This document shows positions 15,684-47,865 of a stretch of DNA of 47,865 nucleotides, in pieces. The DNA lies in NCBI GenBank assembly GCA_964422885.1, contig CAYRDV010000002.1:1-47865 (forward strand), in the 5' to 3' direction. This DNA comes from an uncultured Candidatus Sericytochromatia bacterium (lineage in GTDB: Bacteria > Cyanobacteriota > Sericytochromatia > UBA7694 > JACMQJ01). Both the position numbers and the translations under genes were made by a program. Numbering within the stretch: the first letter of the stretch is position 1; each line of letters begins with the position of its first letter. Under the pieces are notes generated by a model. It had not been told where the DNA came from, made no database searches, and saw nothing but the letters and a program-made list of their open reading frames with translations.

Positions 15684-15757
15684 GGCGGTGTAGCTCAGTT
15701 GGTTAGAGCACTCGGCTCATACCCGGGTTGTCGGTGGTTCAAGTCCACTCGCCGCTA
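15684..15757 (+). tRNA. tRNA with CAT anticodon (elongator Met most likely, Ile2/lysidine type not excluded)
   Basis: Cloverleaf read by hand:
- acceptor GGCGGTG/CGCCGCT plus discriminator A
- D arm GCTC-AGTTGGTTA-GAGC
- anticodon arm CTCGG-CTCATAC-CCGGG
- T arm GGTGG-TTCAAGT-CCACT
The initiator signature is absent (no 3x GC at the base of the anticodon stem, G1 paired). No encoded CCA. Confidence 0.85.
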
Positions 15758-16776: not shown

Positions 16777-16802
16777 GGACAGAACAGTGTTCTGTCCCTA
16801 CA
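16772..16802. repeat. Palindromic element, GGACAGAACAgTGTTCTGTCC family, copy 2
   Basis: tgtagggacagaaca-g-tgttctgtccctaca. It overlaps the tilS stop codon (16774-16776), between convergent genes. Confidence 0.85.
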
Positions 16803-26819: not shown

Positions 26820-27641
26820 CTATATTTTTTTTCTTTCAAAGATATTGATATTATTAGTAAGCCAGTCAATTACCAAAGCTTCACGAAAAAGATTTTTTAT
26901 TTTTGTTGATTTCTCTTCCATATGGATAAAATTTTTATCTTCAAAAAGGCTTATCCAAAACTCATACGGCTGTTCATTTATATGACCAAAACCACCCTGA
27001 CCCGGAGGAGCTGAGCTAAAGATTATACGATTTGCATTGGTTGTCAGAAATTCAACCAGTTTTTCTGACATATCATTTGGAATATGTTCAGCAACTTCAA
27101 AACAGATTGCTGTATCAAATTTTTTTGAACATGGAGAATCCTGGCCAATTTCCCAATGATATGTTTTTACTATCGGAGAGCATAATTTAATGGCATCTTT
27201 GGAACTATCTAAACCAACAGAATCAATATTAAGTTTTTGAAACTGTTCAATGTAAATACCACAACCACACCCTATATCAATAATATTTTCAGGTTCTAAT
27301 ACATCCTTAATTATTTTACAGGCAATTTCTGCACTTGGATTTTCGAATATTTTACATAATGTATAAAAAGAAGTATTATAAGATTCGCTACCTTGTACAG
27401 GTTCATCCAGATCTTCGGGTTTATAATACATAAATTCTGTATCTGTATATCTGGATTTTATATTTTCCAGATCATTTTCTTCATGAACTATGTAATCATA
27501 CTTTTTTTTATCTAATTCCTCCAATAATACATTTTCAGAAGCTATAGATCTGATTTCATAAAAATCTTTTATACCAGAAAAAACATCATTTACAGTTTTT
27601 AACCTATTAAAATCCTGATAGAAAAAAATTAAACTTTTCAT
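26820..27641 (-). CDS. Class I SAM-dependent methyltransferase
   Basis: 273 aa. Motif I IIDIGCGCGIY. Post-I DSVGLD. FDTAICFEVAEHIP. Its ATG shares one nt with the TAA of the giant GT gene (TAATG). Confidence 0.8.
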   Translation of the reverse strand: MKSLIFFYQDFNRLKTVNDVFSGIKDFYEIRSIASENVLLEELDKKKYDYIVHEENDLENIKSRYTDTEFMYYKPEDLDEPVQGSESYNTSFYTLCKIFENPSAEIACKIIKDVLEPENIIDIGCGCGIYIEQFQKLNIDSVGLDSSKDAIKLCSPIVKTYHWEIGQDSPCSKKFDTAICFEVAEHIPNDMSEKLVEFLTTNANRIIFSSAPPGQGGFGHINEQPYEFWISLFEDKNFIHMEEKSTKIKNLFREALVIDWLTNNINIFERKKI

Positions 27642-30600
27642 TAAAAATCCTTTTTTACTGAGATAATTTCTTTCATTAAAATATCTATTGTCTTTTTATA
27701 TTCTTCTCTTGCTGGTAATTTTGCAATTTGCGATAAATTTTTTCGATCTTCAAGAGTATAAGTTTCTTTAAAATCAAAATAGTATTCTAAAGCCTGTTCA
27801 AGATGGTTTTGCTCCAGATAAAACATTATTAATTCTTTTAGAACTGGCTTATATCCAGTAGAAATTGAATGAGCCTGGTGCAGATAAATTACTGTTTTTG
27901 CCTGATCATTTAGCTGATTATAACAACGTCCTAATTCAAGGTTTAGCCATAATGTAATATTATCTTCAAGAGAATTAATTTCTAAAGGGTTAGTATTTCC
28001 GCTAAAAATCTGATCATACAAATACTCATAAATTTCTACAGCATTTTTTAAATCTCCAGATTTTCGGTTACAGTAACCGGCAAAAAACAAAGCATCCTGA
28101 AATGTTGGTGAAATATTTAAAATTTCTTCTATAAAAGGAAGAGATTTTTGATAATCCTGATGAATTACTATTAATTGGCGAATAATTTTAATCAGGATAT
28201 TACAATAAAATGAATTTTCTTTCGGTAATGATGTTTTATTAAAAAGTTCATATGAAATAATAAATGAATTAAGAGCCTGAGCATATTCTTTAATTGAAAA
28301 ATATAAATCACCAAGATGCAAATAGTAGTAATAATTATCTGGTAAATCACCTTCTTTTTTTATTGCATCATTTATTAATAAAATATTTTCATTTGCCTTA
28401 TTAGCCGAAATCACCTTTTTATCCACATTTAAAAAAGGGATATTAAGCACCTGCATTTGACCATCAGCTTTAAACAAGTGCTCAGCCACCGGGCGAACAG
28501 AGATAATTTCAAAATTATTTTTAAATAAGGAATCCTTAAATGATGAAACAGAAAAAATAAATTCAGTAAAACTTTCCAGATACTTCAGACAAAATACAAT
28601 TGGATTATTCTGGTAAGGTTGTTCTAACAAAAAAGGCAATAAATTTTTTTTACACTCTTCAGTTAAAAGCTCATTGGGTCCTAATGATAAAATCCAGTCG
28701 CCTGAAGCACTTTTATAAACTTCATTTTTAATTTTGCTATAATCATTCTCATTTGAAAATTCTAGTATTTTAATCTCTTTAGATTGGGCAAGGGGCTTAA
28801 GCCCCTTGTTGAATTTTTTGCAAATATCAACTGTTCTATCTGTTGAACCAGTATCCACTACTAATATTTCAGACGCTATTGGCAAAATATTTTTTAGCGA
28901 TTCTTCAATCTTTTTTTCATCATTTTTTGTAAAAATACAAACACTAACCTTTGGTGATAAAGAATTTACTTTTTTCCTTATTGGTTCTAATTCTTCAGGC
29001 GAAAATCCTTCCGTATATTCGACAATTTTTAAAAGCTTTAATAACGCCGATTTATATTGTGGTGATTCTGGTTCGAGCTTAATAATATTTTCATAACTCA
29101 TTTTATCCTGCTGTGAATATTGCATACCAGCCTGAGAATAATAAAAAACAGCTTTTTCAAGATTTTCTGCAAGTAAATAATAACGAAGAAGATGAAAAAT
29201 TACAGGCATAAATTTTTTATTGGAATTATAAAGATTTTCCAGATATGTTAAACCTTTTTCCTGATTACCCATTAGCAGATAACACCGACCAATTTCAAGA
29301 GAAACCATAAAATTAAGCTGTATACCAAGATTGTCTAGATTAAAAAGTTTGCTTTTCTGCTGTAAATTTATTGTTTTCTGATAATTTTTTAGAGCTTCTT
29401 CAAGCTTTCCGGTATGGTGCTGACAATATGCCCTAAAATAGTAAATATCAGGTAAATCAGGGACCAAGAATTCAAGCTTATCTATAAATTGTAGTGCATA
29501 TTTGTATTGCTCATGAATAAAAATAAGTACCTTAATAATGATAATCAAAGCGTTCGTACTAAACTTATAATCAGTTTTTTCTTTGAGTTGATTATAGGAA
29601 ATATTGTAGTATTCAACCGCTTTATCAAATTGTTTCAGTTCAGCATATGAATCAGCAATATAGTTATAGTAATAGTAATAATATTTATCTTTTTCTTTTT
29701 TATTTTTAATAGCGTCAAAAAGAATATTGATATATTTTTCTGTTTTTGTTCTTAATTCTTTTTCAGGTCTAAAATTTCCACGATGTAAAAAGGAAAAATC
29801 AGGACAATCAACTTTTCTGAGATTTCCTTCTTTTATTGCAAGATTCTCATGAATTGGGCTGATATAGTAAATACCATAATGATTCCGGAAAAGATTTTGC
29901 TGAAAATAGGAAGTATCAACCAGATTATTTTTCTTTGAATTTAAATTTTTAAAGCAAAAAGCAACTGGTTCATACTGAAATGGCGTTTCCAGTAAAAAAG
30001 GGATTAAATTTTTTCGGGTTTCTTCATTCAATATCTCGTCAGCGTCAATTATTAAAATCCAGTTTCCGGTAGCATGTTTTATTGACTCATTTCTGGCTTT
30101 GGCAAAATCATTTTCCCAGGTTGTTTCAGATACTTTTGCATATTTTGCAGCAATTTCCTTTGTTCGGTCTGTTGAACCTGTATCTGTCACTAAAATCTCA
30201 TGAGCAATCTGTAAAACACTTTTTAAGCAGGATTCAATGTATTTTTCCTCATTCTTTACGATAAGACAAACACTTATTGTCGGTTCTACAGGTGTTGCAA
30301 GCTCATCCAGCTTTTTTAAAACAGAGTCTTCTTCTTCTTTTAGCCAGCCTTTTATTTGTAATAAATTTTCCAAAAGTATAATTAGGGTTTCTTTATATAA
30401 ATAATCATGTTTGGGAACATTAATTCTAGACTCTAAAACATCCTTTCCCTCATCACCAAAAGTTATATTATTTTTTAGGTGATGGTTAATTGCTTCAGGT
30501 AAATCACCTTTTAACAAGTAGTATTTTTCTAATTGTAAAAGTACCAGTGAAGATTCAGGCGATAATCTATATGCTTCGGAAATATATAAGCCATATTTTT

Positions 30601-33283
30601 CTTCATTCCCATTGATAAAACAACATCTGGCTAGCTCAATATAAATACTGGGTAGAAGCTCTTTTTCCTGGGAAACAATACCAGGAAATAAATTTATTGA
30701 ATCAACATTTAAAAGCTTTAAGGCTTTTTCAAAACTTTGGATTGCCTCGCCAAAACGACTCATTTTTTCCTGACAAAATCCTTGATAAAACAATGAATCA
30801 GGAAAATTAGGGTTAATATTAAATAATTCATTTATAAAAGGTTCAGCTTGTTGATACTCCTGTAAATGTAACAGCAATTCTTCAGTTATTTTAAGCAGAA
30901 TATTTATAAATATTGGTTCATTGAAGTAATTTTCATTGACTGAATAATTTTTCTTGTATAGCTGGTAAGACTGAAAAAAATTATCAAAGGCTTCTCTGTG
31001 TTTATTAACAACTGAATATGATTTTCCCAGCTGGTATAAATAATAATAATTTTCAGGAGCCAACTTATTTTCAGTAATAATTTTTTCTAACTGATAAATA
31101 TATTTTTCATTTTTTTCTTTAATTTTTTCTTCACCAATCGCAGTTCCTTTATGAAAAATGGTTAGCTGAGGGCAATATTGATAAGAAAGGTTAGATTCTT
31201 TGCTATAAAGTTGTTCATGGATTGAGCCGGTGAATTCAAGTCCCCATTTTCTTTTGAAAATGGTATGTTTAAAATAGGAAACAGTTGATTTTGTTCCTGG
31301 TTTTTCGGCAAGATATCTGAAAAAATACACAACAGGCTTCTCTTGATCTGCTTTTTCTATTAAAAAAGGCAAAATATTTTCTTTTGTCTCATTTGTTAAT
31401 TCTTCATCAGCATCAATAACCAAAACCCAATCTCCAGTTGCATGAGATAAAGATTCATTTCTGGCTTTGGCAAAGTCATCTTCCCAGGTTGTCTGAAATA
31501 TTTTTATGAATTCCAAACTCTCCCCAGCCCTCTCTTGAGAAGAGAGGGAGTTAATTTGTTCTCCTCTCTTTGCAAGAGAGGAGTTAGAGGAGAGTTGAAG
31601 TTTTCTACAAATATCCAATGTTCGATCAGTAGAACCTGTATCCAGAATAATAATCTCATTTGCTATTGGTAAAACACTATTAAGACAGGATTCAATATAT
31701 TTTTCTTCATTTTTTACAATCAGGCAGACGCTTAGCGAAGCTGTAAATTCTGAAGTTAAATCTTTTATTTTCTTTCTTATTGCTTCAGACTCAACCGGGT
31801 TCCAGCCTTCAATACGGATAATTTTTAATAATAGCTTTACCAATACTTTTTTATATTTTGTTTCTTCAGGATTTAAATTCTTTATCAGGTTAATTTCATT
31901 TATTTCTTCAGGAGCTATTAGCTCTGTTTTTTGCAAATAAAATAAGGCTTTTTCCAAATCACTTTCTAACAGATAAAATTTTAAAAGGTGGTAAATTAAA
32001 GGCGTTGAATCATTATTAGTTTTATAAGCTGCCTCAAGGGTTGCTATTGCTTTTTCTTTATCATCTAATGCCAGATATGCAGTACTTAATTCAAGCAGTA
32101 GCATAGTAATAAGTGATTTATCCTGAGAAACTATTCCCAAGGGATTTAACTCTCTGTTATCAACAAATAGCTCCAAAATTCTTTCATAGTATGTAATTGC
32201 TTTCTCAGTTTTTCCCAGATTTTGCAAAGAATATCCATAATAAAAAAGGGCATCTGAAAAATCAGGCGAAATTTGCAATAGCTCATCCAAATATTTTAAG
32301 GCTTCTTGAAATTTCTGATGATTAAATATTAATTCAGAAATTATTTTAATGAGAATACTTCCATAAGCCAGGCTTTCTTTATCAAAATTTCCTATTTTAT
32401 ACAAATTATAAGATGTAAGAAATGCTTCCAGTGCTTTTTCATGATTATTCTGCTGAGAATACGAATTTCCAAGGTGATGATAATAATAATAGTTTTCAGG
32501 ATTTTCAGGCTCTTTTTCAATAATTTTTAGCAATAATGTTATGTATTTAATGCTTTTTTTTATTAAATCATCAGCTGATTTTAATGTTCCAAAATGATAA
32601 ACTTCAAAAAATGGACAGTTAATATTAATCAGGTCTTTTTCCGGTCTGTATAACTGTTCATGGATCGCCCCCCTAAAACTGATACCCATATTATTTTTAA
32701 AAAGAGCCTGCCTGAAATATGAGGTGACAAAGCCTCCCTGTTCCTGAGGATTTAGTACTTTGCAACAAAAAACAACAGGTTTTTCATCATAAGTATTTTT
32801 TTCTAAAAAAGCAGATAATTTTTTTTGGGTATCTTCAGTTAAAACTTCATCCGCACCAATATAAAGAATCCAGTCACCAGTAGCATACTTTAAAGATTCA
32901 TTTCTGGCTTTGGCAAAGTCATCTTCCCAGGTTGTCTGAAATATTTTTATGAATTCCAAACTCTCCCCAGCCCTCTCTTGAGAAGAGAGGGAGTTAATTT
33001 GTTCTCCTCTCTTTGCAAGAGAGGAGTTAGAGGAGAGTTGAAGTTTTCTACAAATATCCAATGTTCGATCAGTAGAACCTGTATCCAGAATTATAATTTC
33101 ATAAGCTACAGGTAAAAGGCTTTTTATGCAGGATTCAATATATTTTTCTTCATTTTTGGCAATAAGGCAGACGCTAATTTTCGGTCTTCCCGAAAACAGG
33201 GGCCCCTTTAGGGGAGTTAATTCTGTACTCGGAATCAGGGGCTCGGTATTCCCGGGAGTTTTTTTTGGAGTTATTAATCCCAC
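27641..33283 (-). CDS. Giant protein of four tandem family-2 glycosyltransferase + TPR modules
   Basis: 1880 aa, GTG start. Modules start near aa 36, 517, 1003 and 1446. Each opens (I/L/V)SVC(L/I)..KN(E/D)EK .. DTGSTDRT .. W..DFAKARNES and is followed by a TPR-like helical region (ENYYY.. motif). Confidence 0.85.
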   Translation of the reverse strand: MGLITPKKTPGNTEPLIPSTELTPLKGPLFSGRPKISVCLIAKNEEKYIESCIKSLLPVAYEIIILDTGSTDRTLDICRKLQLSSNSSLAKRGEQINSLSSQERAGESLEFIKIFQTTWEDDFAKARNESLKYATGDWILYIGADEVLTEDTQKKLSAFLEKNTYDEKPVVFCCKVLNPQEQGGFVTSYFRQALFKNNMGISFRGAIHEQLYRPEKDLININCPFFEVYHFGTLKSADDLIKKSIKYITLLLKIIEKEPENPENYYYYHHLGNSYSQQNNHEKALEAFLTSYNLYKIGNFDKESLAYGSILIKIISELIFNHQKFQEALKYLDELLQISPDFSDALFYYGYSLQNLGKTEKAITYYERILELFVDNRELNPLGIVSQDKSLITMLLLELSTAYLALDDKEKAIATLEAAYKTNNDSTPLIYHLLKFYLLESDLEKALFYLQKTELIAPEEINEINLIKNLNPEETKYKKVLVKLLLKIIRIEGWNPVESEAIRKKIKDLTSEFTASLSVCLIVKNEEKYIESCLNSVLPIANEIIILDTGSTDRTLDICRKLQLSSNSSLAKRGEQINSLSSQERAGESLEFIKIFQTTWEDDFAKARNESLSHATGDWVLVIDADEELTNETKENILPFLIEKADQEKPVVYFFRYLAEKPGTKSTVSYFKHTIFKRKWGLEFTGSIHEQLYSKESNLSYQYCPQLTIFHKGTAIGEEKIKEKNEKYIYQLEKIITENKLAPENYYYLYQLGKSYSVVNKHREAFDNFFQSYQLYKKNYSVNENYFNEPIFINILLKITEELLLHLQEYQQAEPFINELFNINPNFPDSLFYQGFCQEKMSRFGEAIQSFEKALKLLNVDSINLFPGIVSQEKELLPSIYIELARCCFINGNEEKYGLYISEAYRLSPESSLVLLQLEKYYLLKGDLPEAINHHLKNNITFGDEGKDVLESRINVPKHDYLYKETLIILLENLLQIKGWLKEEEDSVLKKLDELATPVEPTISVCLIVKNEEKYIESCLKSVLQIAHEILVTDTGSTDRTKEIAAKYAKVSETTWENDFAKARNESIKHATGNWILIIDADEILNEETRKNLIPFLLETPFQYEPVAFCFKNLNSKKNNLVDTSYFQQNLFRNHYGIYYISPIHENLAIKEGNLRKVDCPDFSFLHRGNFRPEKELRTKTEKYINILFDAIKNKKEKDKYYYYYYNYIADSYAELKQFDKAVEYYNISYNQLKEKTDYKFSTNALIIIIKVLIFIHEQYKYALQFIDKLEFLVPDLPDIYYFRAYCQHHTGKLEEALKNYQKTINLQQKSKLFNLDNLGIQLNFMVSLEIGRCYLLMGNQEKGLTYLENLYNSNKKFMPVIFHLLRYYLLAENLEKAVFYYSQAGMQYSQQDKMSYENIIKLEPESPQYKSALLKLLKIVEYTEGFSPEELEPIRKKVNSLSPKVSVCIFTKNDEKKIEESLKNILPIASEILVVDTGSTDRTVDICKKFNKGLKPLAQSKEIKILEFSNENDYSKIKNEVYKSASGDWILSLGPNELLTEECKKNLLPFLLEQPYQNNPIVFCLKYLESFTEFIFSVSSFKDSLFKNNFEIISVRPVAEHLFKADGQMQVLNIPFLNVDKKVISANKANENILLINDAIKKEGDLPDNYYYYLHLGDLYFSIKEYAQALNSFIISYELFNKTSLPKENSFYCNILIKIIRQLIVIHQDYQKSLPFIEEILNISPTFQDALFFAGYCNRKSGDLKNAVEIYEYLYDQIFSGNTNPLEINSLEDNITLWLNLELGRCYNQLNDQAKTVIYLHQAHSISTGYKPVLKELIMFYLEQNHLEQALEYYFDFKETYTLEDRKNLSQIAKLPAREEYKKTIDILMKEIISVKKDF
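28789..28808. repeat. 20-bp perfect palindrome CAAGGGGCTTAAGCCCCTTG inside GT module 4 (in frame, encodes KGLKPLA)
   Basis: Read directly. The same 23-bp string gcaaggggcttaagccccttgtt recurs intergenically at 44729-44751. Confidence 0.9.
31516..31596. repeat. Structured palindromic element (outer stem plus two CT-rich hairpins) embedded in frame in GT module 2
   Basis: - outer stem: aactctcc (31516-23) pairs with ggagagtt (31589-96)
- hairpin A: ccctctctt-gag-aagagaggg (31528-48)
- hairpin B: ctcctctctt-tgc-aagagaggag (31561-83)
Encodes LQLSSNSSLAKRGEQINSLSSQERAGESLEF. Confidence 0.85.
32959..33039. repeat. Identical copy of the structured palindromic element in GT module 1
   Basis: Lies inside the 201-bp tract 32891-33091, which is identical to 31448-31648 (offset 1443 nt). 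Confidence 0.85.
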
Positions 33284-33483
33284 TGTATTTTCCTGAAGCT
33301 TAAAGTAAATTTTATTTATTTAGTAGTTTATCATGATTCTGTTTAAAAAAATAAAATAAGGGTATTAAAATACTAGTGTTTAATAGTTATAATGAGAAAT
33401 AGTATAAAATTAAAATAATTCAGAAAAATTAAGCAAAATTGTAATAATTAAAGTAGTAAAAATTGGTGGATAGAAAGACTCAC

Positions 33484-34803
33484 ATGATAATGAAATTATC
33501 AAAGAAAATAGCTATTTTAGGCATTTTATCATTATTTATTTCTGTAACTTCGGGGTGTGACAGAGATATTCCGCTTGATTTTCAGGCCAGCGATTTTCAG
33601 CAGCAGCTCAAAAACACAGGTTTTAATATTTCTTCAACTTCCGGGCAAATTATTATTAAACGTAAAAAAGGAATAAATTCTTTTAATTCTATTTCTCCAG
33701 ACTTTAAAACAATAAAATCAATAAAAAATCTGAATGTTGAGGTCGTACAGGTTAAAAATTCAGGTTCAATGGATAATATTCTAAAAAATTTGAGAAATCA
33801 TCCTGGTGTAGAATATGCCTCTCCTAACTTTATCAGAAAGATCGTTTTACCAAAAAGAAGAAGGAGTACAATGCTGGCAGTAACTCCGATAAACCAGGGA
33901 ACTCCTGCTTCGACAGCAGGCTCTGATCCTATGCGTAAAGATCAGTATGCTCTTGATATTACTCATGCAGAGCAGGGCTGGAAAATTACCAGAGGTAAAG
34001 CAAATATCATTATTGCTATTGTTGATACAGGGATAGATCCTGAACATCCCGATTTAAAAGGTAAAACAGTTCCTGGTTTTAGTGCGATAAAAGAAAGTCA
34101 GACAGTAAAAGATGAAAATGGACATGGAACACATGTTTCGGGTATTGCTTCGGCTATTACAAATAATGCAGTTGGGATTTCGGGTATGGCCCCGAATTGT
34201 AAAATAATGCCGGTAAAGGTTCTTGATCACTCAGGTTCTGGTGATGATGCCGGTATAATTGAAGGCATTACCTGGGCAGCAGATCATGGGGCAGATATAA
34301 TAAGTATGAGTCTGGGCGGTGGTGGAACAAGTGAGGCTTTTGAAGAAGCAATTTCCTATGCTTTGAAAAAAAATGTGGTAATTATAGCTGCAATGGGGAA
34401 TGATGGTCAAAATATCGAAAATTACCCGGCAGCTTCCAAGGGGGTTATTGCTGTTGGTTCTACCGATGCAAAAGATAAAATTTCTGATTTTTCAAATTTT
34501 GGTAACTGGATAACTGTTTCGGCTCCAGGTACTCAAATTTTATCAACTTTTCCAACATATAAAGTTGATTTAAACAATGAAGGACTACCGCAAAACTATG
34601 CCACACTTGATGGAACCTCTATGGCAGCGCCTTATGTTGCTGGACTTGCGGCACTAATCAGGAGTAAATATGGAAAAATTTCCCCAGAACAGGTTAAAAA
34701 TATTATTATTAAAGGTGCAGATGATTTAGGCCACCCTGGTTTTGATGATTATTTCGGACATGGAAGAATAAATGTTTTAAAAACAATCTCTAATAATAGA
34801 TAA
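33484..34803 (+). CDS. S8 subtilisin-like serine peptidase with N-terminal propeptide
   Basis: Catalytic triad motifs VDTGID, HGTHVSG and GTSMAAPYVAG. Signal/lipobox VTSGC. The track starts at TTG 33463; ATGs at 33484 and 33490 are more plausible. Confidence 0.9.
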   Translation: MIMKLSKKIAILGILSLFISVTSGCDRDIPLDFQASDFQQQLKNTGFNISSTSGQIIIKRKKGINSFNSISPDFKTIKSIKNLNVEVVQVKNSGSMDNILKNLRNHPGVEYASPNFIRKIVLPKRRRSTMLAVTPINQGTPASTAGSDPMRKDQYALDITHAEQGWKITRGKANIIIAIVDTGIDPEHPDLKGKTVPGFSAIKESQTVKDENGHGTHVSGIASAITNNAVGISGMAPNCKIMPVKVLDHSGSGDDAGIIEGITWAADHGADIISMSLGGGGTSEAFEEAISYALKKNVVIIAAMGNDGQNIENYPAASKGVIAVGSTDAKDKISDFSNFGNWITVSAPGTQILSTFPTYKVDLNNEGLPQNYATLDGTSMAAPYVAGLAALIRSKYGKISPEQVKNIIIKGADDLGHPGFDDYFGHGRINVLKTISNNR

Positions 34804-34849
34804 TAATTTTAAGTTATCAAGCAATATTTGTAGTAAATTTATAAAAATA

Positions 34850-35341
34850 ATGAAATTAAAAAATAATTCAGGCTTTTCCCTGATAGAAGCAATGACAGTT
34901 GTAGTAATCCTTGCTGTTTTATTTGCGATTGCTATACCAAATTATATTAACGCTCAGGATCGAGCAAAGTACGCTAATCTAAAACTTAATATGACTATTG
35001 TCAGGACTTCTGTTGAAATTTATGCTTTAGATTGGGGAGGAGCTTATGCTGCCAATAAAACAGAGCTATACAATGAAGGAAAATCAAAAAAATATCTGAG
35101 AGATTTTAAAAACCCTTTTACAAATTCGGCAACAACAATCAAAGATGTTGGTGATATCCAGACAGACTCTGATTTGGAAGCAGGTCTTATTGTATATGGA
35201 AGTAGTGGTTCTGGTACCAGTCCAATAGTTAATTATTTTTCACCACCGGATTCTACCCGTATTTATGTAATTTATTCAATAGACAAAGATCTTTTACCTT
35301 TTAAAGAAAAAGGCTCTATATTTTATTTATCAAACGGATAA
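34850..35341 (+). CDS. Type IV pilin-like protein (prepilin-type N-terminal cleavage/methylation domain)
   Basis: 163 aa. MKLKNNSG|FSLIEAMTVVVILAVLFAIAIPNY is a class III signal with Glu at +5. Confidence 0.8.
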   Translation: MKLKNNSGFSLIEAMTVVVILAVLFAIAIPNYINAQDRAKYANLKLNMTIVRTSVEIYALDWGGAYAANKTELYNEGKSKKYLRDFKNPFTNSATTIKDVGDIQTDSDLEAGLIVYGSSGSGTSPIVNYFSPPDSTRIYVIYSIDKDLLPFKEKGSIFYLSNG

Positions 35342-35765
35342 GCCGCCTTCCCAAAGTAGTTGTAATTTTTAATTTATTTTGAAAACTTTTATGCATATAA
35401 GTAGCAAAAAGTTCTTTAAGTAAAAAAATGGAACTTTTAACTGCATAATTATTTTCAGACATTATTCCCATTTTATAAGTAGAAATAACTATTTTATGAC
35501 ATTTTTGTTTCATTGATAAAAAATTACTATTTTTTCTATTTATTGATGAAGGTTTTGAATTATTATCATGGTTTATTATCATAACCTCACCTTACTACAT
35601 TACAAATTATTAAGCTACTCTAATATTATAATTAATATTTTTGAAAAATGTTTTTGATGTTTTAAAATTATCCCCAATATAAACTACCTACAATTATTAT
35701 TTTTTTATTATCAGGAAAATTGATGTTATATAATTACTATTGTTTGATTAGAATCTGGATAAATA

Positions 35766-36986
35766 ATGAAATTACGTTTAAACTCTGAATTCGGTACATT
35801 ACGCTCTGTATTAATTCACAGGCCGGGTAAAGAAATTGATCGGCTTACACCTTATAATATTTCTGATTTACTTTTTGAGGATGTTCCTTATCTCGAAGAA
35901 ATGCAGGTTGAACATGATAGTTTTACCAATATAATAAAACAGGTTTCAGGGGCTAAAGTTTATCGTTTAACTAATTTACTGGGGCAGGTTCTAAAAGATA
36001 AGAAGCTGCTGCTAAATGTTTTTGAGGAAATTCTCGCCGATTCTGGTCTTTCGTTCCTGGCCCAGGATGTTATTGAAACTATTTCCACAGCAGAAGCTAC
36101 AACTGCACTAGTAGCAGGGTTAAAAGTAAAAGAACTGAAAAAAAAGCTCCATAATAAAGCGCTTGATAAACATCAGGATAATGAGTTTTTAATCCAGCCA
36201 AACCCTAATCTCTATTTTATGCGTGATCCGGCTGCATTAGTGCAAACCGGAGTTATTTCTTCCCAAATGAAATATCCGGCTCGCCAGCGAGAATCAATGA
36301 TTTTAAAACTTGTTTTAGAAAATCATCCTGATTTTAAAGAAAATTATCAGCCAATATCTCTTAATTCTGATAATACCAACAGTTTACCTTCAATTGAAGG
36401 TGGCGATGTCATCGTCTTATCCAAAAAAGCTCTGGCTATTGGGCGCTCAGAAAGAACCGATGCGGAAGCAATAGAAGAAGTTGCCAAACAGGTATTAAAG
36501 GATGATCAGGTTGAGCGGGTTTATGAAGTGGATTTACCCCGAAAAAGAAATTTTATGCATTTGGATACTGTTTTTACTATAATTGATGAAAATCTGGTAG
36601 TTACATATCCTGATGCTGTAAATTCGGTTTTAGAAACAAAAGTATATTACAAAAAAGCTCAGGATTCTGATGGGAATGTTATTTTAGGTATTCATAATCT
36701 TGGAGAATCAATACTTAAAATTTTGAAAAAAGAAATTCCGCATCTTGATATTATAGAAACAGGGTATGGAAATCCCGATTATGCATCAAGAGAGCAATGG
36801 TTTGATGGAGCAAATGTTTTTGCAATCGGCCCAAGACAGGTGATTTCTTATAATAGGAATCGTTATACTAACAGAGCTTTAAAAGAGGCTGGTGTAGAAG
36901 TGATTGAAATCAGGGGCTCCGAGTTAGTCAGAGGATTAGGTGGGCCAAGATGTATGACAATGCCACTGGAAAGGGATGAAATATAA
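35766..36986 (+). CDS. arcA: Arginine deiminase
   Basis: 406 aa. LRSVLIHRPG .. NLYFMRDP .. EGGDV .. MHLDTVF .. GGPRCMTMPL (catalytic Cys). Confidence 0.9.
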   Translation: MKLRLNSEFGTLRSVLIHRPGKEIDRLTPYNISDLLFEDVPYLEEMQVEHDSFTNIIKQVSGAKVYRLTNLLGQVLKDKKLLLNVFEEILADSGLSFLAQDVIETISTAEATTALVAGLKVKELKKKLHNKALDKHQDNEFLIQPNPNLYFMRDPAALVQTGVISSQMKYPARQRESMILKLVLENHPDFKENYQPISLNSDNTNSLPSIEGGDVIVLSKKALAIGRSERTDAEAIEEVAKQVLKDDQVERVYEVDLPRKRNFMHLDTVFTIIDENLVVTYPDAVNSVLETKVYYKKAQDSDGNVILGIHNLGESILKILKKEIPHLDIIETGYGNPDYASREQWFDGANVFAIGPRQVISYNRNRYTNRALKEAGVEVIEIRGSELVRGLGGPRCMTMPLERDEI

Positions 36987-37948
36987 TGAGTAAGATAAAA
37001 CAAATTACAAATACAGTACTGATGGTAAGGCCATTTGACTTTTGCTTTAATGAAGAAACAGCCCTTGATAATGAATTTCAAAACAGACCTACCGATTCAC
37101 AGGATGAAATCAACCGAAAAGCGCTGAATGAGTTTGAAAATATGGTACTTACTCTCAGGAAAGAAAATGTAAATGTTTTGGTTCTTGAACAGGGAACCAA
37201 TTTAGCTAAGATGCCTGATGCCGTATTTCCTAATAACTGGATTTCCACTGAACATGACGGAACAATTGTTACTTTTCCAATGGCAACTCCTAACCGGAGA
37301 GCAGAAAAGTTAAGATTACAGGATGCTGAAAATCTTTTCATGGAAAACCAATATCTGGTAAAAAATATAATAAATGTTGGCCCTTTAAGAGAACAATCAT
37401 TATTTCTTGAAGGAACAGGAAGTATGATAATAGATCATCCCAACAAAATCGTTTATATGGCTGAATCAATTCGTTCAAACCCTCTTCAGCTCAACAACTT
37501 TTTACACTTGAGAAATTATTCCCAATCTGTCATTTTTCAGGCTGCCAGTTCTGGTGGCAAGCCTATTTATCATACAAATGTAATTATGAGTATTGGTGAA
37601 AAGTTTGCTGTTATTTGCAACGATTGTATCATTTCTAAAAATGACAAGGATAAGTTACTTACAATACTTGGAAAAACACATGAAATTATTGAAATTTCAA
37701 TTGAGCAAATGGAAAATTATTTTTGTGGTAATATTCTTCAGCTTTCCTCAAATGATGGAAATCCATTAATTATAATGTCAGACTCAGCATTGACTGGTTT
37801 TAATAAATTCCAGATAGAAAAGCTGGAAAAGCATGGAAAAATTATTTCTGTTAACATCGATACAATTGAAAAAGTAGGTGGAGGGAGCGCCAGGTGTATG
37901 ATGGCAGAAGTATTTTTACCGAAGAAACTCTCCCTGACCCTCTCTTGA
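36986..37948 (+). CDS. Amidinotransferase-fold protein, arginine-deiminase-related (CtlX-like citrulline hydrolase candidate)
   Basis: 320 aa. TNTVLMVRPFDFCFNEETALDNEFQ N-terminus and GGGSARCMMAEVF catalytic-Cys motif. 1-nt TAATG overlap with arcA. The last 9 codons and the stop lie in a CT-hairpin repeat element. Confidence 0.75.
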   Translation: MSKIKQITNTVLMVRPFDFCFNEETALDNEFQNRPTDSQDEINRKALNEFENMVLTLRKENVNVLVLEQGTNLAKMPDAVFPNNWISTEHDGTIVTFPMATPNRRAEKLRLQDAENLFMENQYLVKNIINVGPLREQSLFLEGTGSMIIDHPNKIVYMAESIRSNPLQLNNFLHLRNYSQSVIFQAASSGGKPIYHTNVIMSIGEKFAVICNDCIISKNDKDKLLTILGKTHEIIEISIEQMENYFCGNILQLSSNDGNPLIIMSDSALTGFNKFQIEKLEKHGKIISVNIDTIEKVGGGSARCMMAEVFLPKKLSLTLS

Positions 37949-37959
37949 AAAGAGAGGGA
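37926..37959. repeat. Partial copy of the CT-hairpin element (ccctctctt-gaa-aagagaggg) forming the 3' end of the upstream CDS
   Basis: aactctccctgaccctctcttgaaaagagaggga versus aactctccccagccctctcttgagaagagaggga at 31516 (30 of 34 identical). The TGA stop at 37946-48 is inside the hairpin. Confidence 0.8.
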
Positions 37960-37989
37960 ATAAAAATAATAGAAATAAGGAGATAAGAA

Positions 37990-38535
37990 ATGAGAATTAA
38001 ACAGGATGATGCTATAGCTGTCATTATTGATATTCAGGAAAAACTTTTTCCGCATATTTATGAAAATGAAATATTATCTGCCAATTGTGTCAGATTATTA
38101 TCCGGGTTACAGGTCCTGGAAATACCACTACTTATTACTGAACAATATACCTCTGGTCTTGGTTATACAATTAAACCCATAAAAGAAACGATTGAAAAAA
38201 ATTATTACCCAATAGAAAAAATTGATTTCAGTTGCTGTGGTTCTGTTGACTTTCTGGGAAAATTACAGAGCTTTGGAAAAAAACATGTCATCCTTTTGGG
38301 TATAGAAACGCATGTATGCGTCTTACAGACAGCTCTGGATCTGATTGAAAACAGGTTTATACCTGTAGTTATTGCAGATTGCGTTTCTTCAAGAAAGCTT
38401 AATGATAAAAATATTGCCATTCAAAGAATGAAAACTGAAGGAGCAATAATTTCAACTTATGAATCAATTTTACTTGAACTTTGCAGAGTTGCCGGAAACG
38501 ATAATTTTAAAGCAATTTCCAAAATAATAAAATAA
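37990..38535 (+). CDS. Isochorismatase-family cysteine hydrolase
   Basis: 181 aa. VIIDIQEKLF .. LLGIETHVCVLQTALDL (catalytic Cys context). SD AAGGAG upstream. Confidence 0.85.
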   Translation: MRIKQDDAIAVIIDIQEKLFPHIYENEILSANCVRLLSGLQVLEIPLLITEQYTSGLGYTIKPIKETIEKNYYPIEKIDFSCCGSVDFLGKLQSFGKKHVILLGIETHVCVLQTALDLIENRFIPVVIADCVSSRKLNDKNIAIQRMKTEGAIISTYESILLELCRVAGNDNFKAISKIIK

Positions 38536-38564
38536 TTTATATAGTTGGTATTTTAAAATTTTTT

Positions 38565-38664
38565 AGCCACAGATTTTCACAGATAAGAACACAGATAAAA
38601 AATAGTATTTTGTATTTTCCACTTTTTATTTAAAATCTGTGAGAATTCGTGTTTATCCGTGGCT
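38565..38664. repeat. Imperfect inverted repeat built from CAC(A/G)GAT motifs, between convergent genes
   Basis: The left arm is agccacagattttcacagataagaacacagat. The right arm, reverse-complemented, is agccacggataaacacgaattctcacagat. It is related to the ACGGAT arrays further right. Confidence 0.7.
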
Positions 38665-38675
38665 TAAGATCTAAA

Positions 38676-40265
38676 TCAGGATTCACCGTTAAGTGCTTTG
38701 AGTAAGTCGTCAACACTGATATCTTTGGCTTCTTCAGTTTTCTTTTTATTAACTGGAGGGCTTGTATTATTACCAGTTAGATTATTGGTTGACTTAATAT
38801 TTGATTCTATATCTTTCATAATAGAACTAAGTTCGCCTGTTTGTGACTTTAGAGGGGTTGGTTCTGATTTTAAGGCATTAACCAGACTATTCTCTTCCTC
38901 CGGTGATAATTTAAGCGGGCTGGGCTCTGATTTTAAGGCATCTAACAAGTCCTTCTTGTAAAGCTCCTGAGTTGGAGATTTATCGACAATAACAGTAGGA
39001 GATTTATCAACAAAAATACTGTTTTTATCCTGATTAATAGTTGAAAACAGGTTATCCTTATCCAGCTTTCCACCTTTAGTAGCCGAGGTACCTATACTAT
39101 TCAACAAATCCTGAGCTTTAAGCCCTGATTCAGATGGTATTGAAATATCATTAAGTGATTTAAGTAATTCTTCTGAAGTCAAAATATTTGGCGGTATACT
39201 ATTTAAAAGATCCTCAGGGGTAATTTTACTGGAAGAAACATTGTCCCCAACTTTTAAAAGGTCATTAGATTTAGCATTTTCAGCCTTAGATTTCATTAAA
39301 TCGTTAAAAGTAAATTTATCAGGAGGAATACTTTTTAACAAATCTTCTGAAGTAACTCTTTCCGGTGGAATACTGTTTAAAAGTTCTTCTGAGGTAATTT
39401 TTCCTGGAGGTACACTTATGGCATTTTTCAAATCATTAGTGGTAAGGCCACTTTTTCCTGTATTAATGGGAATTGTATTTAATAAATCCTGCGATGATAT
39501 TTTTCCTGGAGGGACACTTATAGCATTTTTTAAGGTTTCAAAATCAAGCTCTTTCTTTTTAGCCGCCTCTGGAGGAACAGTAGGAGAAACACCAAAATTT
39601 CCTGCCCCAGACATTTCATTTGATTTTATTGATGTCTTTGTATATTCTTCAGGTTTTGTCCTGGGAACCGAAGACGAAACAACAGGCATTTTTTTCTGGA
39701 TTGAATCAATTAAATCCTTATCTTTAAGATTCGTATCTCTTATTTTACCCGTAATTGCATTTTTTATATCTGCTTCAGACAGGTTTTCTGATTTTACAAT
39801 AAGTTTACCTTCATCAACCAGTGGATTCGCTTCAATAAGGTGTTGGGCTGCTTTAGCCATATTAAAAGTAGTTAACAGCTCAATTTTGGAATGAAATTCG
39901 GATTCATAATTAAAAAAGAATATTTCAATACTTTTTTGATTACCTAAAGTATCCAGTATTTTCCTGTCTTTATCATCATTCATGATTAAGCCGGTTTCAG
40001 ACTGGAAAAATTCGTTTGAACCCTCTGGCAGAATAAGAAGCCTTACAATAACTACTCTTGGGGCAGCCTTACTTTGTTCAACCTGCCAGGTCATTTTAGA
40101 TAAAGCAAGCTTATCAACATCCTGGGATGCCGTCTTTACCACAAAAACGAGTTTCTCTTTCCCAGAAACTTTTTCTTTAAATAAAAGAAGCCTCAAACCT
40201 CGCGGAGATTTTGTAGCTACTTTTGTCAGAAACCTGACTTCTCCAACGTCTAATTGCATACCCAC
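38676..40265 (-). CDS. Repeat protein with about 11 (S/T)x(E/D)(E/D)LL(N/K)SIP motifs, unknown function
   Basis: 529 aa. GTG at 40265 or ATG at 40259. A globular N-terminal ~150 aa is followed by repeats such as TSEELLNSIPP, TSEDLLKSIPP and TPEDLLNSIPP (aa ~243-392), plus ALKSEP(S/T)PLK x2 and VDKSPT x2. Confidence 0.7.
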   Translation of the reverse strand: MGMQLDVGEVRFLTKVATKSPRGLRLLLFKEKVSGKEKLVFVVKTASQDVDKLALSKMTWQVEQSKAAPRVVIVRLLILPEGSNEFFQSETGLIMNDDKDRKILDTLGNQKSIEIFFFNYESEFHSKIELLTTFNMAKAAQHLIEANPLVDEGKLIVKSENLSEADIKNAITGKIRDTNLKDKDLIDSIQKKMPVVSSSVPRTKPEEYTKTSIKSNEMSGAGNFGVSPTVPPEAAKKKELDFETLKNAISVPPGKISSQDLLNTIPINTGKSGLTTNDLKNAISVPPGKITSEELLNSIPPERVTSEDLLKSIPPDKFTFNDLMKSKAENAKSNDLLKVGDNVSSSKITPEDLLNSIPPNILTSEELLKSLNDISIPSESGLKAQDLLNSIGTSATKGGKLDKDNLFSTINQDKNSIFVDKSPTVIVDKSPTQELYKKDLLDALKSEPSPLKLSPEEENSLVNALKSEPTPLKSQTGELSSIMKDIESNIKSTNNLTGNNTSPPVNKKKTEEAKDISVDDLLKALNGES

Positions 40266-40439
40266 ACAAATTTAAAAAAATTCACTCTTAAAGAAGTATA
40301 TCTATAACAAATGGAAGGTCCACTGAATATTATACAATATGAAAGTTTTATTCATATTAGTATAAAAATAATTTTTTTACAAGTATTAAATCTAAGCTAA
40401 AATACTTAACAGCCTTATATATGAAATAAATTTAAATCA

Positions 40440-42857: not shown

Positions 42858-42862
42858 GAATG

Positions 42863-42900
42863 GAACACGGATTGGACGGATCAAACGGATATTCACGGAT
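42863..42900 (+). repeat. ACGGAT array, copy a (four hexamers, spacing 9-9-10)
   Basis: ggaacacggattggacggatcaaacggatattcacggat, with hexamers starting at 42867, 42876, 42885 and 42895. It lies between the P-type ATPase stop and the AAA gene stop. Confidence 0.85.
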
Positions 42901-42919
42901 TTTATTTATTCCTAATGTA

Positions 42920-44584: not shown

Positions 44585-44723
44585 GAACAGAACACTGATT
44601 GAACGGATAATCGTAGAAAATGCTCTAAATATAGTATTTTTATATTTGATAGCGAAGATTAATCTAAAGCTAAATATTTTCTTTAAGTCCCCTCTTTTTG
44701 ACATGAAATGGAGAAGAGAGGGG
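44585..44723 (+). repeat. Composite dispersed element: degenerate ACGGAT array plus ~100-bp conserved tail ending in a CCCCTCT/AGAGGGG hairpin
   Basis: gaacagaacactgattgaacggataatcg, then tatagtatttttatatttgatagcg..taatctaaagcta.atattttctt, shared with 47729-47814. Confidence 0.75.
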
Positions 44724-44729
44724 AGTGAG

Positions 44730-44749
44730 CAAGGGGCTTAAGCCCCTTG
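44730..44749. repeat. 20-bp perfect palindrome CAAGGGGCTTAAGCCCCTTG, intergenic copy
   Basis: Identical to 28789-28808. It lies just downstream of the 44767 gene stop. Confidence 0.9.
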
Positions 44750-44766
44750 TTCCCGGTGAGTTAAAC

Positions 44767-47677: not shown

Positions 47678-47814
47678 GAACACGGATTTAACGGATCAGA
47701 CGGATGATTACGGATAAAATAATCTAACTATAGTATTTTTATATTTGATAGCGTAATCTAAAGCTATATATTTTCTTCAAGCCCCCTCTCTTGCTATGAC
47801 TGTAAGAGATGAGG
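47678..47814 (+). repeat. Composite dispersed element: ACGGAT array, copy c (spacing 9-9-10), plus conserved tail and imperfect CT hairpin
   Basis: gaacacggatttaacggatcagacggatgattacggat, with hexamers at 47682, 47691, 47700 and 47710. It lies 23 nt upstream of ATG 47654. The tail 47729-47814 matches 44630-44723. Confidence 0.85.
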
Positions 47815-47865
47815 ATTTAGCGATTGTCTTAAAAGTCAACAGTTAAAATCAAAAAATAAAAAATA

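Follow-up and report, generated by a model that had tools for sequence, protein, structure and literature searches.

Palindromic repeats translated in frame within bacterial genes have precedents in the Rickettsia RPEs and in ERIC and QMITE1 (PMC10969869). RPEs are approximately 100–150 bp long and are confined to Rickettsia and its relatives; they occur in frame in unrelated coding genes, where they add a fold-compatible extra peptide, and are also found between genes (PMC10969869). Each RPE family has a conserved peptide, and no nuclease is known for it. The REP unit consists of a short tag and a GC-rich hairpin, and mobile doublets (REPINs) are two inverted units folding into one long hairpin (PMC3116915, PMC3733652); the tag at one REP end is a GTAG or CGTC tetranucleotide (PMC3733652). 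REPs are species-specific; their units flank a single small nuclease gene, the RAYT, an IS200-like Y1 transposase, and repeat sequence and protein lineage vary together. Bacterial MITEs (Correia/CREE, ERIC, QMITE1 and those of cyanobacteria) are small and non-coding, have TIRs, show nesting and occasional in-frame fusion, and have longer gene-bearing relatives.

The EDxHD homing endonucleases, such as I-Bth0305I, are known from group I introns and inteins or as free-standing genes of phages, and have additional DNA-binding domains; co-conversion of flanks is a product of homing. The literature places DUF559 genes in this EDxHD (Vsr-like) endonuclease family (PMC9403480; PMC3239194). Our search of the DUF559 literature returned nothing that ties DUF559 to repeats. 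To our knowledge, no transposase or homing activity of DUF559 on such repeats has been demonstrated.

The host gene and the 81-bp element

The window analyzed here is a stretch of 47,865 nt, in which the following features were delineated:

27641..33283, minus strand: host gene of an 1880-aa protein with four GT2+TPR modules (ORF and domain analysis)
33187..33262, minus strand: GC-rich palindromic patch, N-terminal residues ~8–33 (shared 11-mer/12-mer; fold z = -3.0)
32891..33091, minus strand: 201-nt tract, 100% identical to 31448–31648 (window self-comparison)
32959..33039, minus strand: 81-bp nested-palindrome element of module 1 (covariance model E 9e-16; fold z = -5.5)
31516..31596, minus strand: 81-bp element of module 2, identical to the module-1 copy (covariance model E 9e-16)
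28789..28808, minus strand: 20-bp perfect palindrome of module 4 (repeat at 44730; loop comparison)
37926..37958, plus strand: singlet unit composed of the left terminus AACTCTCCC, TGA and the hairpin CCCTCTCTT GAA AAGAGAGGG (model E 0.18)
44689..44762, plus strand: intergenic composite (RNA fold z = -6.7)
47782..47814, plus strand: diverged CT/AG hairpin within an intergenic segment of ~145 nt homologous to 44594–44741

The host protein matched PF00535 in four stretches (Pfam, E 1.5e-78), and its domains have the GT-A core and the DxD motif of GT2 (GT-A fold) enzymes, with GmaR and SunS as the nearest solved relatives. The motif is intact (DADE) in modules 2 and 3, whereas module 1 has GADE and module 4 GPNE. 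Of 65 homologous domains, 54, module 3 among them, have a spacing of 17 aa between the motifs DTGSTDxT and DDFxxARN. This spacing grows to 46 aa in modules 1 and 2, in agreement with the approximately 29 additional residues reported there by the initial annotation; module 4 has 28 aa, six more than the 22 aa of the orthologous module. The AF2 model (mean pLDDT 89; >90 in the core) places the 29 residues, which score 53–71, in the loop that joins helix 2 to strand 3. In the comparison with a solved relative, a check proposed in the same annotation, the HMMER alignment to GmaR breaks precisely at the insertion point.

The element of module 1 consists, in order, of AACTCTCC, TCTAA, a first hairpin (CTCCTCTCTT GCA AAGAGAGGAG), a spacer, a second hairpin (CTCCCTCTCTT CTC AAGAGAGGG), CT and GGGGAGAGTT, and is translated in element frame 3 as LSSNSSLAKRGEQINSLSSQERAGES. 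An 8-bp outer stem, AACTCTCC/GGAGAGTT, encloses two CT/AG hairpins of 10 and 9–11 bp; the size of 81 bp, the 8-bp stem and the two hairpins (initially given as 9–10 bp) were verified in both modules. Folding of the corresponding RNA, which had also been suggested, gave -46.5 kcal/mol (z = -5.5). The window contains five occurrences of the motif CCCTCTCTT-N3-AAGAGAGGG, whereas chance would give 0.01.

The 201-nt tract comprises the element together with 52 and 68 nt of flank (120 nt in all). Over 150 nt on each side of the element, the conserved tract included, modules 1 and 2 are 82–83% identical, and outside the tract they diverge further. On sequence comparison, this indicates a gene-conversion or co-conversion between the two modules and not independent hits, and modules 1 and 2 are counted here as one event because the identical block is common to both. 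The claim of insertions in three modules is correct as to the occupation of three modules, but modules 1 and 2 do not represent separate insertions. The two-copy arrangement is that of a single assembly, since no exact-product record of the 1880-aa protein was found in our look-up.

A cross-phylum family of nested palindromes

Common termini and hairpins were found at more than 119 loci in many phyla, the hairpin-selected ones among them being biased by the search pattern. The family has sharp boundaries and follows the formula (G)AACTCAYCCC – hairpin – hairpin – GGGRTGAGTT(C). A full element is built of two “terminus + CT/AG hairpin” units inverted to each other, the DNA unit being AACTCACCC plus hairpin, and singlets exist too. 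The modal length is 80–89 nt. The window copies have the terminus variant AACTCTCC/GGAGAGTT, the ends of which are still mutually complementary and which also occurs in other phyla. From 31 elements, all belonging to phyla other than that of the candidate, a covariance model was derived; it detected both window copies with 60.8 bits (E 9e-16) over model positions 1–86 of 86. The 81-bp element of the window agrees with the family in its termini, two hairpins, length (~80–90 nt in the family) and full-length model score. Covariation neither supports nor rejects the hairpin structure, because the stem sequences are near-invariant in the alignment.

About 90% of the copies are intergenic and lie at unrelated sites, and the family is also present in phage contigs. 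Its carriers include Mucilaginibacter and Rosettibacter primus 4148-Me, the latter with at least 3 copies. The initial annotation had proposed MITE/REP-like palindromes translated in frame and had made this reading depend on their dispersal elsewhere; the CT/AG element is indeed scattered in the window and far beyond it. No direct repeat that could represent a target-site duplication was found in the 12-nt flanks of 73 elements, nor was polymorphism of empty and filled sites seen, and for this reason we infer mobility from dispersal only. In 21 kb sampled from the MAG of a related Sericytochromatia member, no clear element was seen. The Rfam search of the window at the gathering threshold returned no described RNA family, its E-value mode on four element-rich loci yielded sub-threshold hairpin look-alikes alone, and the literature search with the terminus sequence retrieved primers and guide RNAs only. 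Neither the family nor its link to DUF559 was thus found in Rfam or the searchable literature, and both appear to be previously undescribed.

Like the RPEs, the window element is an in-frame palindromic repeat at a structurally tolerant site; in contrast to them, it is 81 bp long, belongs to a cross-phylum family, and has variable frames and peptides and DUF559-bearing relatives. The differing peptides and frames and the lack of an Rfam match set it apart from the RPE families by description, not by consensus alignment. The family shares singlets and inverted doublets with REP/REPIN, but its units have AACTCAYCCC in place of the GTAG/CGTC tag, and its sequence is nearly identical across phyla. 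It has the TIRs, small size, absence of coding capacity and dispersed copies of MITEs, as well as their nesting and occasional in-frame fusion to host ORFs; it differs from them in showing no target-site duplication and in that its longer gene-bearing relative encodes no recognized transposase family. We consider it likely that each of the 81-bp sequences in modules 1 and 2 is one copy of a nested-palindrome element that is small, non-autonomous and of the MITE/REPIN type. The insertions were called unusual in the initial annotation, which holds only in a relative sense, given the RPE, ERIC and QMITE1 examples (PMC10969869); they carry the palindrome-in-protein phenomenon beyond Rickettsia-type reduced genomes, to a groundwater relative of cyanobacteria that is free-living (Sericytochromatia-like).

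In family versions of ~0.5 kb, the two units enclose a DUF559 gene, and at nine hairpin-selected loci from different phyla such a gene lies between or beside the units. In the reverse search, built from three sequences, 54 of the 80 loci chosen by DUF559 similarity alone had an exact terminus at a distance of ≤200 nt, with a terminus density of 3.1 per kb near the DUF559 gene vs 0.18 per kb away from it. The link is thus seen in both directions, from hairpin to gene and from gene to terminus, and in remote DUF559 lineages the hairpins and termini co-vary with them. All-vs-all clustering of ORFs revealed DUF559 as the only small gene recurrent between or beside hairpin units; gene-bearing relatives with the same ends encode DUF559 and not a recognized transposase, and no flanking Y1 (RAYT) gene emerged from this clustering. 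Within one metagenome, DUF559 genes are multi-copy and stand in unrelated contexts.

The element-associated proteins match PF04480 (E 1e-31 to 1e-32) and have invariant E72, D74, H78 and D85, as in the DUF559/EDxHD Vsr-like family; their profile matches PDB 3HRL (6e-24) and the I-Bth0305I homing-endonuclease domain 3R3P (1e-3). A single small nuclease gene flanked by units, with a repeat that co-varies with the protein lineage, resembles the REP/REPIN–RAYT system, whereas the gene here belongs to the DUF559/Vsr-like PD-(D/E)xK nucleases and not to the IS200-like Y1 transposases. The 3R3P match, the invariant residues and the flank co-conversion seen in modules 1 and 2 are points of likeness to EDxHD homing endonucleases; the differences are that a protein of ~125 aa, with predicted activity, is encoded between palindromic units and that derivatives lacking the gene are dispersed.

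We tentatively propose, as a possibility that we rate somewhat below even, that nested-palindrome elements form a pan-bacterial class with DUF559 proteins as its dedicated nucleases, which would recognize AACTCAYCCC–hairpin units and drive homing-like, repair-templated spread and homogenization, including that between paralogous coding sites. Alternatively, the association could reflect elements nesting near DUF559 genes. In the present genome, a DUF559 nuclease may supply the cleavage that mobilizes or homogenizes the elements and may serve gene-less copies in trans; such a trans-acting source is assumed, since tblastn detected no DUF559 gene either in the window or across 40 kb of related contigs. 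The pairing would parallel that of RAYT with REP/REPIN and, if true, would join IS/MITE and RAYT/REPIN as a third kind of partnership between a nuclease and a hairpin repeat, in which copying between paralogous coding sites would lead to the same enzyme loop being filled in several modules, paralogues and orthologues. DUF559, a very widespread family without an assigned function, is thereby tied to a defined cross-phylum DNA repeat, and this provides a testable hypothesis on the role of these nucleases.

Occupation of the same loop in relatives

Family members occupy the GT2 loop in related contigs as well:

L124, 10226–10302: family member in the loop of an orthologue
L125, 10187–10296: family member in the loop of an orthologue
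L125, 6944–7164: family member in the loop of a paralogue

The L125 orthologue element matches the family model with E 0.055 only. The inserted peptides (25–74 aa) are dissimilar between the window and the orthologues and are read in frame 3 in the former and frame 1 in the latter. Because peptides and reading frames differ between relatives, the encoded peptide is a passenger, and what is conserved is the DNA, i.e., the termini and hairpins. The orthologues thus carry the same palindromic family with different peptides; non-palindromic coding of the same peptide, which the initial annotation had named as evidence to the contrary, was not found in them. Judging from the shared position, occupation of the loop would be older than the split from the orthologues.

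A family member would have entered the helix2–strand3 surface loop of the GT2 domain in an ancestor of this GT2–TPR lineage, as the shared position suggests. It may have been kept as a stop-free insert (in the frame used) with a net length that is a multiple of three, in a loop that tolerates insertion without disturbance of the fold. Spread to paralogous sites then proceeded by gene conversion via the conserved flanking codons, as the 201-nt identical tract of modules 1 and 2 shows. Gene conversion is also supported by the L124 orthologue element, which is 89–100% identical to that of the L125 paralogue, their flanks being 61–64% identical. Taken as a whole, the entry of a MITE/REPIN-type family element into the GT2 loop, gene conversion, a passenger peptide and putative mobilization by DUF559 form the explanation that we regard as probable. 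It would represent a route by which selfish DNA lengthens enzyme loops: residence in a surface loop, co-conversion of flanks from one repeated module to another, and nesting.

Several details would also fit site-specific re-insertion, in which target preference gives each gene or module its own copy in place of inheritance and gene conversion. The insert junctions vary (0–3 nt on the left, 1–11 nt on the right), as do the frames; the L124 orthologue element is closer to that of the L125 paralogue than to that of the L125 orthologue; a 144-nt nested insert in L125 points to ongoing insertion activity. However, the flanks of the 73 elements have no consensus except G at -1 and C at +1, the great majority of copies are found at unrelated intergenic sites, and the module 1/2 copy brings 120 nt of co-converted flank with it, so that we consider re-insertion unlikely.

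A selected function in the host gene, either of an mRNA hairpin (translational pausing between folding units or mRNA stabilization) or of a flexible peptide useful to the enzyme, is less probable still. The loop is occupied in three orthologues and one paralogue despite protein identity of ~48%, the termini and hairpins stay near the family consensus, and the folds are strong (z from -3 to -6). On the other hand, the sequence, length and frame of the peptide are all unconserved, the family is mostly intergenic and is found in phage contigs, module 3 and the 54 homologous domains work with a 17-aa loop, and there is no covariation signal.

Hairpins elsewhere in the window

The 20-bp perfect palindrome of module 4 codes for KGLKPLA and has a second, intergenic copy at 44730, exactly as the initial annotation had described; identity extends to 23 nt (28788–28810 and 44729–44751), and no occurrence of the palindrome would be expected in the window. 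Its 18-nt core, AAGGGGCTTAAGCCCCTT, equals the six extra codons (KGLKPL) that are absent from the orthologues. The palindrome is a bare hairpin module without element termini and is present in three independent assemblies; the hairpin at 37938 (DDAH copy) is likewise reproduced by independent assemblies. The 20-bp sequence had no copy in 1.29 Mb of other loci, and the 18-mer turned up in 45 viral stretches, for the most part as a bidirectional terminator hairpin of the A-run/T-run kind. We had considered these viral copies as evidence of mobility and rejected them: generic terminator hairpins without family termini are uninformative in this respect. The extra in-frame hairpin of module 4 is thus real, but the missing termini and the occurrence of its 18-mer as a generic phage terminator speak against an element insertion proper. 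Module 4 would have gained these 18 nt separately, as a bare hairpin module; the same hairpin adjoins an element terminus at 44730.

That all these sequences are ordinary intrinsic terminators or REP-type hairpins, low-complexity coincidence or assembly artefacts, with no mobile family involved, is very improbable and for the 81-bp element largely refuted: the viral 18-mers are mostly terminator-like, the 44730 copy sits just 3' of a gene, and metagenome assemblers can mis-join repeats (the independent contig L120 begins at 33062, i.e., is broken within the 201-nt block), but the 81-bp unit fits the cross-phylum model end to end (E ~1e-15), the family boundaries are sharp, no U-run follows the hairpins on the 3' side inside the ORF, the asymmetric 23-nt identity points to copying and not convergence, and the module-4 and DDAH copies recur in independent assemblies.

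The N-terminal patch of the host gene contains AACTCCCCTAAA, which is near the family left end AACTCACCCTAAA, and AATTAACTCCC. It is GC-rich and palindromic, has GGGAGTTAATT in common with the element and forms a fold (z = -3.0), as had been noted in part before. The overlap with the family amounts to an 11-mer and a terminus-like 12-mer and nothing more, and the family covariance model did not detect the patch; the suggested element origin of the first ~35 aa is unproven.

The singlet at 37926..37958 provides the final ~7 codons and the stop of a DDAH-like ORF (36986–37948) and, being half an element only, matches the family model with E 0.18; the L125 orthologue of this ORF has a different end and no element. 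Such repeats would account for many “hypothetical” P/S/L/G/E/R-rich peptide stretches called from them. In practice, they interrupt metagenome assemblies and lead gene prediction astray at start sites, C-termini and domain boundaries.

The intergenic composite at 44.7 kb gave no score against the family covariance model. It is composed of a long CT/AG hairpin (44689–44723), the 20-bp palindrome (44730–44749) and the right terminus CCGGTGAGTT (44753–44762).

Occupied loops in the glycosyltransferase gene

The features of the giant glycosyltransferase gene that are discussed here are as follows:

27641..33283, minus strand: host ORF, 1880 aa, four consecutive GT2 + TPR modules
32959-33039, minus strand: 81-bp element in module 1, same sequence as the module 2 copy
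31516-31596, minus strand: 81-bp element in module 2, same sequence as the module 1 copy
28789-28808, minus strand: 20-bp perfect palindrome in module 4, with a copy at 44730-44749
33187-33262, minus strand: N-terminal GC-rich patch containing AACTCCCCTAAA and AATTAACTCCC (fold z = -3.0)
Residues 138-148, 619-629, 1075-1085 and 1530-1540 of the 1880-aa protein: DxD regions

Loop length was measured as the distance from DTGSTDxT to DDFxxARN in 65 GT2 domains (67 homologues and the window). The spacing was 17 aa in 54 of the 65, module 3 among them; modules 1 and 2 each had 46 aa. Module 4 had 28 aa versus 22 aa in the orthologous module, the difference being exactly six codons, which are the 18-nt palindrome core. 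Our analysis confirmed that the extra DNA of modules 1 and 2 is an 81-bp element with an 8-bp outer stem (AACTCTCC/GGAGAGTT) around two CT/AG hairpins. Its predicted fold is stable as RNA (-46.5 kcal/mol, z = -5.5) and also scores as DNA (z = -4.8), and the window contains five occurrences of the CT/AG hairpin pattern where 0.01 would be expected.

A 201-nt block is 100% identical between modules 1 and 2 (32891-33091 = 31448-31648) and consists of the element with 52 and 68 nt of flank; the rest of the two modules has clearly diverged. Such identity amid divergence is the mark left by gene conversion in which the flanks are co-converted. On either side of the loop lie the codons that are best conserved in the domain, those for DTGSTDRT upstream and for TTWEDDFAKARNE downstream, and they provide homology for copying among modules and paralogues. 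The initial annotation had counted in-frame palindromes in three modules; three loops are indeed occupied, but not by three separate element insertions, since modules 1 and 2 share the converted block. We read the occupancy as one old event, one recent intragenic copy and a separate gain of a small hairpin in module 4. The two-copy arrangement rests on one assembly, because the sole independent contig reaching the block (L120, from Logan, corresponding to window 33062-42916) ends inside it at 33062 and no other record of the exact 1880-aa product was found; that L120 ends there indicates that the repeat breaks short-read assemblies.

An AlphaFold2 model of module 1, built on a 22-sequence alignment (mean pLDDT 89, pTM 0.84), gave the order strand 1, helix 1, strand 2, helix 2 (42-63), short helix and strand 3 (80-84). 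The 10-residue blocks of the insertion (residues 51-80) had pLDDT values of 53-71, compared with 95-97 in the surroundings; in the model it lies between helix 2 and strand 3. The closest solved relative was GmaR (22ao), followed by SunS (7msp), and the HMMER alignment of module 1 with GmaR fell into two pieces, split exactly at the insertion. By the known topology of Rossmann-like GT-A folds, a loop that leads from a helix to a strand would be expected at the sheet edge opposite the nucleotide-sugar site. Such a position would account for the tolerance of the insertion.

The DxD motif reads GADE, DADE, DADE and GPNE in the four GT2 domains, in order. Judging from these motifs, catalytic residues have probably been lost in module 4 and perhaps, in part, in module 1. 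The last modules of the orthologues show the same DxD loss (PNE).

A cross-phylum element family and its DUF559 partner

An exact-pattern scan for CCCTCTCTT-N3-AAGAGAGGG, with one genome per species, returned at least 119 loci, against about 10 estimated by chance (18 specified bases, 596 Gb), so that the dispersal of the CT/AG palindrome was borne out, and it reaches far beyond the window. Among the matches listed, the carriers were Ignavibacteria, Bacteroidota, Calditrichota, Cloacimonadota, Zixibacteria, Latescibacterota, Fibrobacterota, Margulisiibacteriota/Saganbacteria, several CPR groups, Aminicenantes, one cyanobacterium and one planctomycete, several genomes having multiple matches. 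The composite consists of (G)AACTCAYCCC, 2-5 nt, hairpin A and a spacer, followed by hairpin B (CCCCTTCTCTT N3 AAGAGAAGGGG), 2-5 nt and GGGRTGAGTT(C), with a modal length of 80-89 nt. Both ends are sharp, and in the flanks that were read neither a sequence consensus nor a target-site duplication was found beyond them. The full element thus consists of a pair of terminus + hairpin units, inverted relative to each other, and can fold into two separate local hairpins or a single long one. Units also exist as singlets, some of them in IMG/VR viral contigs. No Rfam family matches the element.

A covariance model of 31 elements, excluding the window's lineage, detected both 81-bp copies over their full length (60.8 bits, E 9e-16). 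This cross-phylum match establishes, at the sequence level, that the window element belongs to the family as its AACTCTCC/GGAGAGTT variant, an end variant also present in other phyla. The GC-rich N-terminal patch, which had been suspected of element origin, does contain AACTCCCCTAAA and AATTAACTCCC and does fold, but the model gives it no score, so that its element origin is at most putative. About 10 of 108 family elements lie inside long ORFs and the remainder are intergenic; with 0-4 of six frames open per element, this fits a survival filter that retains only in-frame, stop-free copies at tolerant sites.

All-versus-all clustering of every ORF in the hairpin-selected loci revealed one small protein family recurring in nine loci from different phyla, assigned to Pfam DUF559 (E 1e-31 to 1e-32). 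In eight of the nine the gene has a unit on each side or one immediately next to it. In L002, L008, L027 and L113 it is enclosed by two terminus + hairpin units with the ends outward; L018 has no visible second terminus. The gene-bearing version is about 0.5 kb long and has the same ends as the 81-bp element. In the reverse direction, 80 metagenome loci were selected solely by similarity to the element-associated DUF559 proteins: an exact terminus 9-mer lay within 200 nt of the gene in 54 of them and an exact hairpin in 46, and terminus density fell from 3.1 per kb near the gene to 0.18 per kb at distances above 300 nt. Sequence data thus establish the association from both directions. Near more distant DUF559 relatives the exact family motifs were absent; variant C/T-rich hairpins flank 15 of 20, some with variant termini (CCCCCTTATCAGGGGG; CCTCACCCC), which indicates that repeat and protein lineage vary together.

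Among solved structures, PDB 3HRL (6e-24) matches the DUF559 profile, as does 3R3P (1e-3), the catalytic domain of I-Bth0305I, an EDxHD homing endonuclease. The E, D, H and D residues are invariant in the alignment of element-associated proteins. DUF559 genes have been assigned to the EDxHD homing-endonuclease family (PMC9403480; PMC3239194). In metagenome Ga0247727 the family appears to be multi-copy and dispersed, with at least nine genes of 74-89% DNA identity on different contigs (L167, L170-L176, L180, L183), some with unrelated flanks and most with family elements on one or both sides. No DUF559 gene was found in the window or related contigs.

Two further observations concern these repeats. 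In L210 and L211, from Hainich groundwater and the window's own study, a distant DUF559 gene is flanked by different hairpins (CCTCCCTTATCAGGGAGG, TCCCCCTTATCAGGGGGA) and AACCCCCTC/GAGGGGTT-like ends; here, too, the repeat sequence seems to follow the protein lineage. The IMG/VR contigs L127 and L138 each carry four singlet units (AACTCACCCC + hairpin) between genes, and such putative viral contigs suggest that phages could carry the family across phyla.

Relations between copies and a possible mechanism

Three modules are present in each of the two nearest homologues (49% and 47% identity); they are equivalent to window modules 1, 3 and 4, and the window's module 2 is an additional copy. Each of the two homologues carries a module 1 loop insertion, with quite different peptides of 25 and 35 extra residues. 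The insertions in these genes and in a paralogue are:

L124, 10226-10302: orthologue element, AACCCACCCC...GGGGTGAGTT, model E 3.5e-5
L125, 10187-10296: orthologue element, AACTTACCCCC...GGGGGTGAGTT, model E 0.055
L125, 6944-7164: 221-nt composite in the same loop of a paralogue, the single-module GT2-TPR gene 6794-8662

The same loop is therefore filled in relatives by family elements with different peptides and palindromic coding; its position, its occupancy and the potential for in-frame translation are clear from sequence comparison. The reading frame is 3 in the window and 1 in the orthologues, and the left and right junctions vary by 0-3 and 1-11 nt, respectively. The conserved feature is thus the nucleic-acid ends and hairpins, not the peptide.

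With the 144-nt nested insert removed, the L124 orthologue and L125 paralogue elements agree at 89% over the left 60 nt and at 100% over the right 16 nt, whereas their flanking coding DNA is only 61-64% identical and the elements of the two true orthologues only 51%. Vertical inheritance followed by neutral decay does not by itself produce this pattern: the mismatch requires exchange or replacement between copies, or constraint on the element. The L125 composite consists of a 77-nt element of the L124 type into which 144 nt are nested, an element-in-element mosaic; the nested insertion has AAGTCCCCTCTATTGCCGTTAGAGC in common with an intergenic copy at L125 4636-4740.

Rickettsia RPEs are a documented case of in-frame palindromic insertion, and fusions of MITEs with host ORFs in frame were described as not unusual (PMC10969869). 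The phenomenon is thus of a known kind and unusual only in a relative sense; the in-frame insertion is a fresh example, and the new part worth following is the element family with its endonuclease partner. In Rfam and the open-access literature we found no description of the family or of the DUF559-repeat link; an earlier one may exist elsewhere. MITEs with a parent element likewise combine gene-less copies with a gene-bearing relative, but the family has neither target-site duplications nor a recognised transposase. REP/REPIN sequences with RAYT resemble it in their tag + hairpin units, inverted doublets, single flanked small nuclease gene and co-variation, but they differ in the GTAG/CGTC tag and Y1 transposase, both absent from the family.

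Dispersal, nesting and sharp ends suggest that the elements are, or formerly were, mobile; no presence/absence polymorphism was seen. DUF559 would supply nuclease activity in trans, and repair-templated copying could spread elements between paralogous coding sites. The lack of target-site duplications fits such a nuclease-and-repair route better than cut-and-paste transposition, though it is no proof. Overall, the observation in the initial annotation was confirmed and its interpretation partly supported.

Other palindromes in the window

Three further family-related features lie outside the host gene:

37926-37958, plus strand: singlet at the 3' end of the DDAH-like ORF 36986-37948, giving its last ~7 codons (KLSLTLS) and stop
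44689-44762, plus strand: intergenic composite with the 20-bp palindrome in the hairpin slot beside right terminus CCGGTGAGTT
47782-47814, plus strand: diverged hairpin within a ~145-nt segment homologous to 44594-44741

The module 4 palindrome and its recurrence at 44730 proved correct. Their identity spans 23 nt and is asymmetric, which argues for copying and against convergence and supports a shared origin of the module 4 hairpin and the one beside the element terminus; only two copies are known. This palindrome and the 37938 hairpin are reproduced in independent assemblies from other samples at 99-100% identity. The L125 DDAH-like orthologue ends in ...FLPKAVRSDG*, without an element there.

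The module 4 18-mer AAGGGGCTTAAGCCCCTT also matches 45 viral-contig stretches (L221-L265, IMG/VR). With an A-run in 31 and a T-run in 31 of 46 occurrences, these are classic bidirectional intrinsic-terminator hairpins; no family termini were found near them, and they were rejected as evidence of mobility, being convergent.

The ~145-nt intergenic segments 44594-44741 and 47691-47832 are ~78% identical, both with a CT/AG hairpin, and sit upstream of the minus-strand genes 42920-44497 and 46191-47654, respectively; the perfect 20-bp palindrome is present only in the former. Another perfect palindrome, unrelated to the one above (core TGTAGGGACAGAACAGTGTTCTGTCCCTACA, with 14-16-bp stems), occurs at 13868-13902 and 16772-16802, at the convergent-gene junctions 12873-13814(+)/13909-15120(-) and 15769-16776(+)/16814-17734(-), and has the appearance of either a shared bidirectional terminator or a further repeat of the REP type. 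At the gathering threshold, Rfam matched nothing in the window but the tRNA gene 15684-15757. For the window's ArsA-type ATPase, the closest named relatives are Candidatus Sericytochromatia/Cyanobacteriota MAGs (77-79% identity), and contigs identical to the window are present in Hainich groundwater samples.
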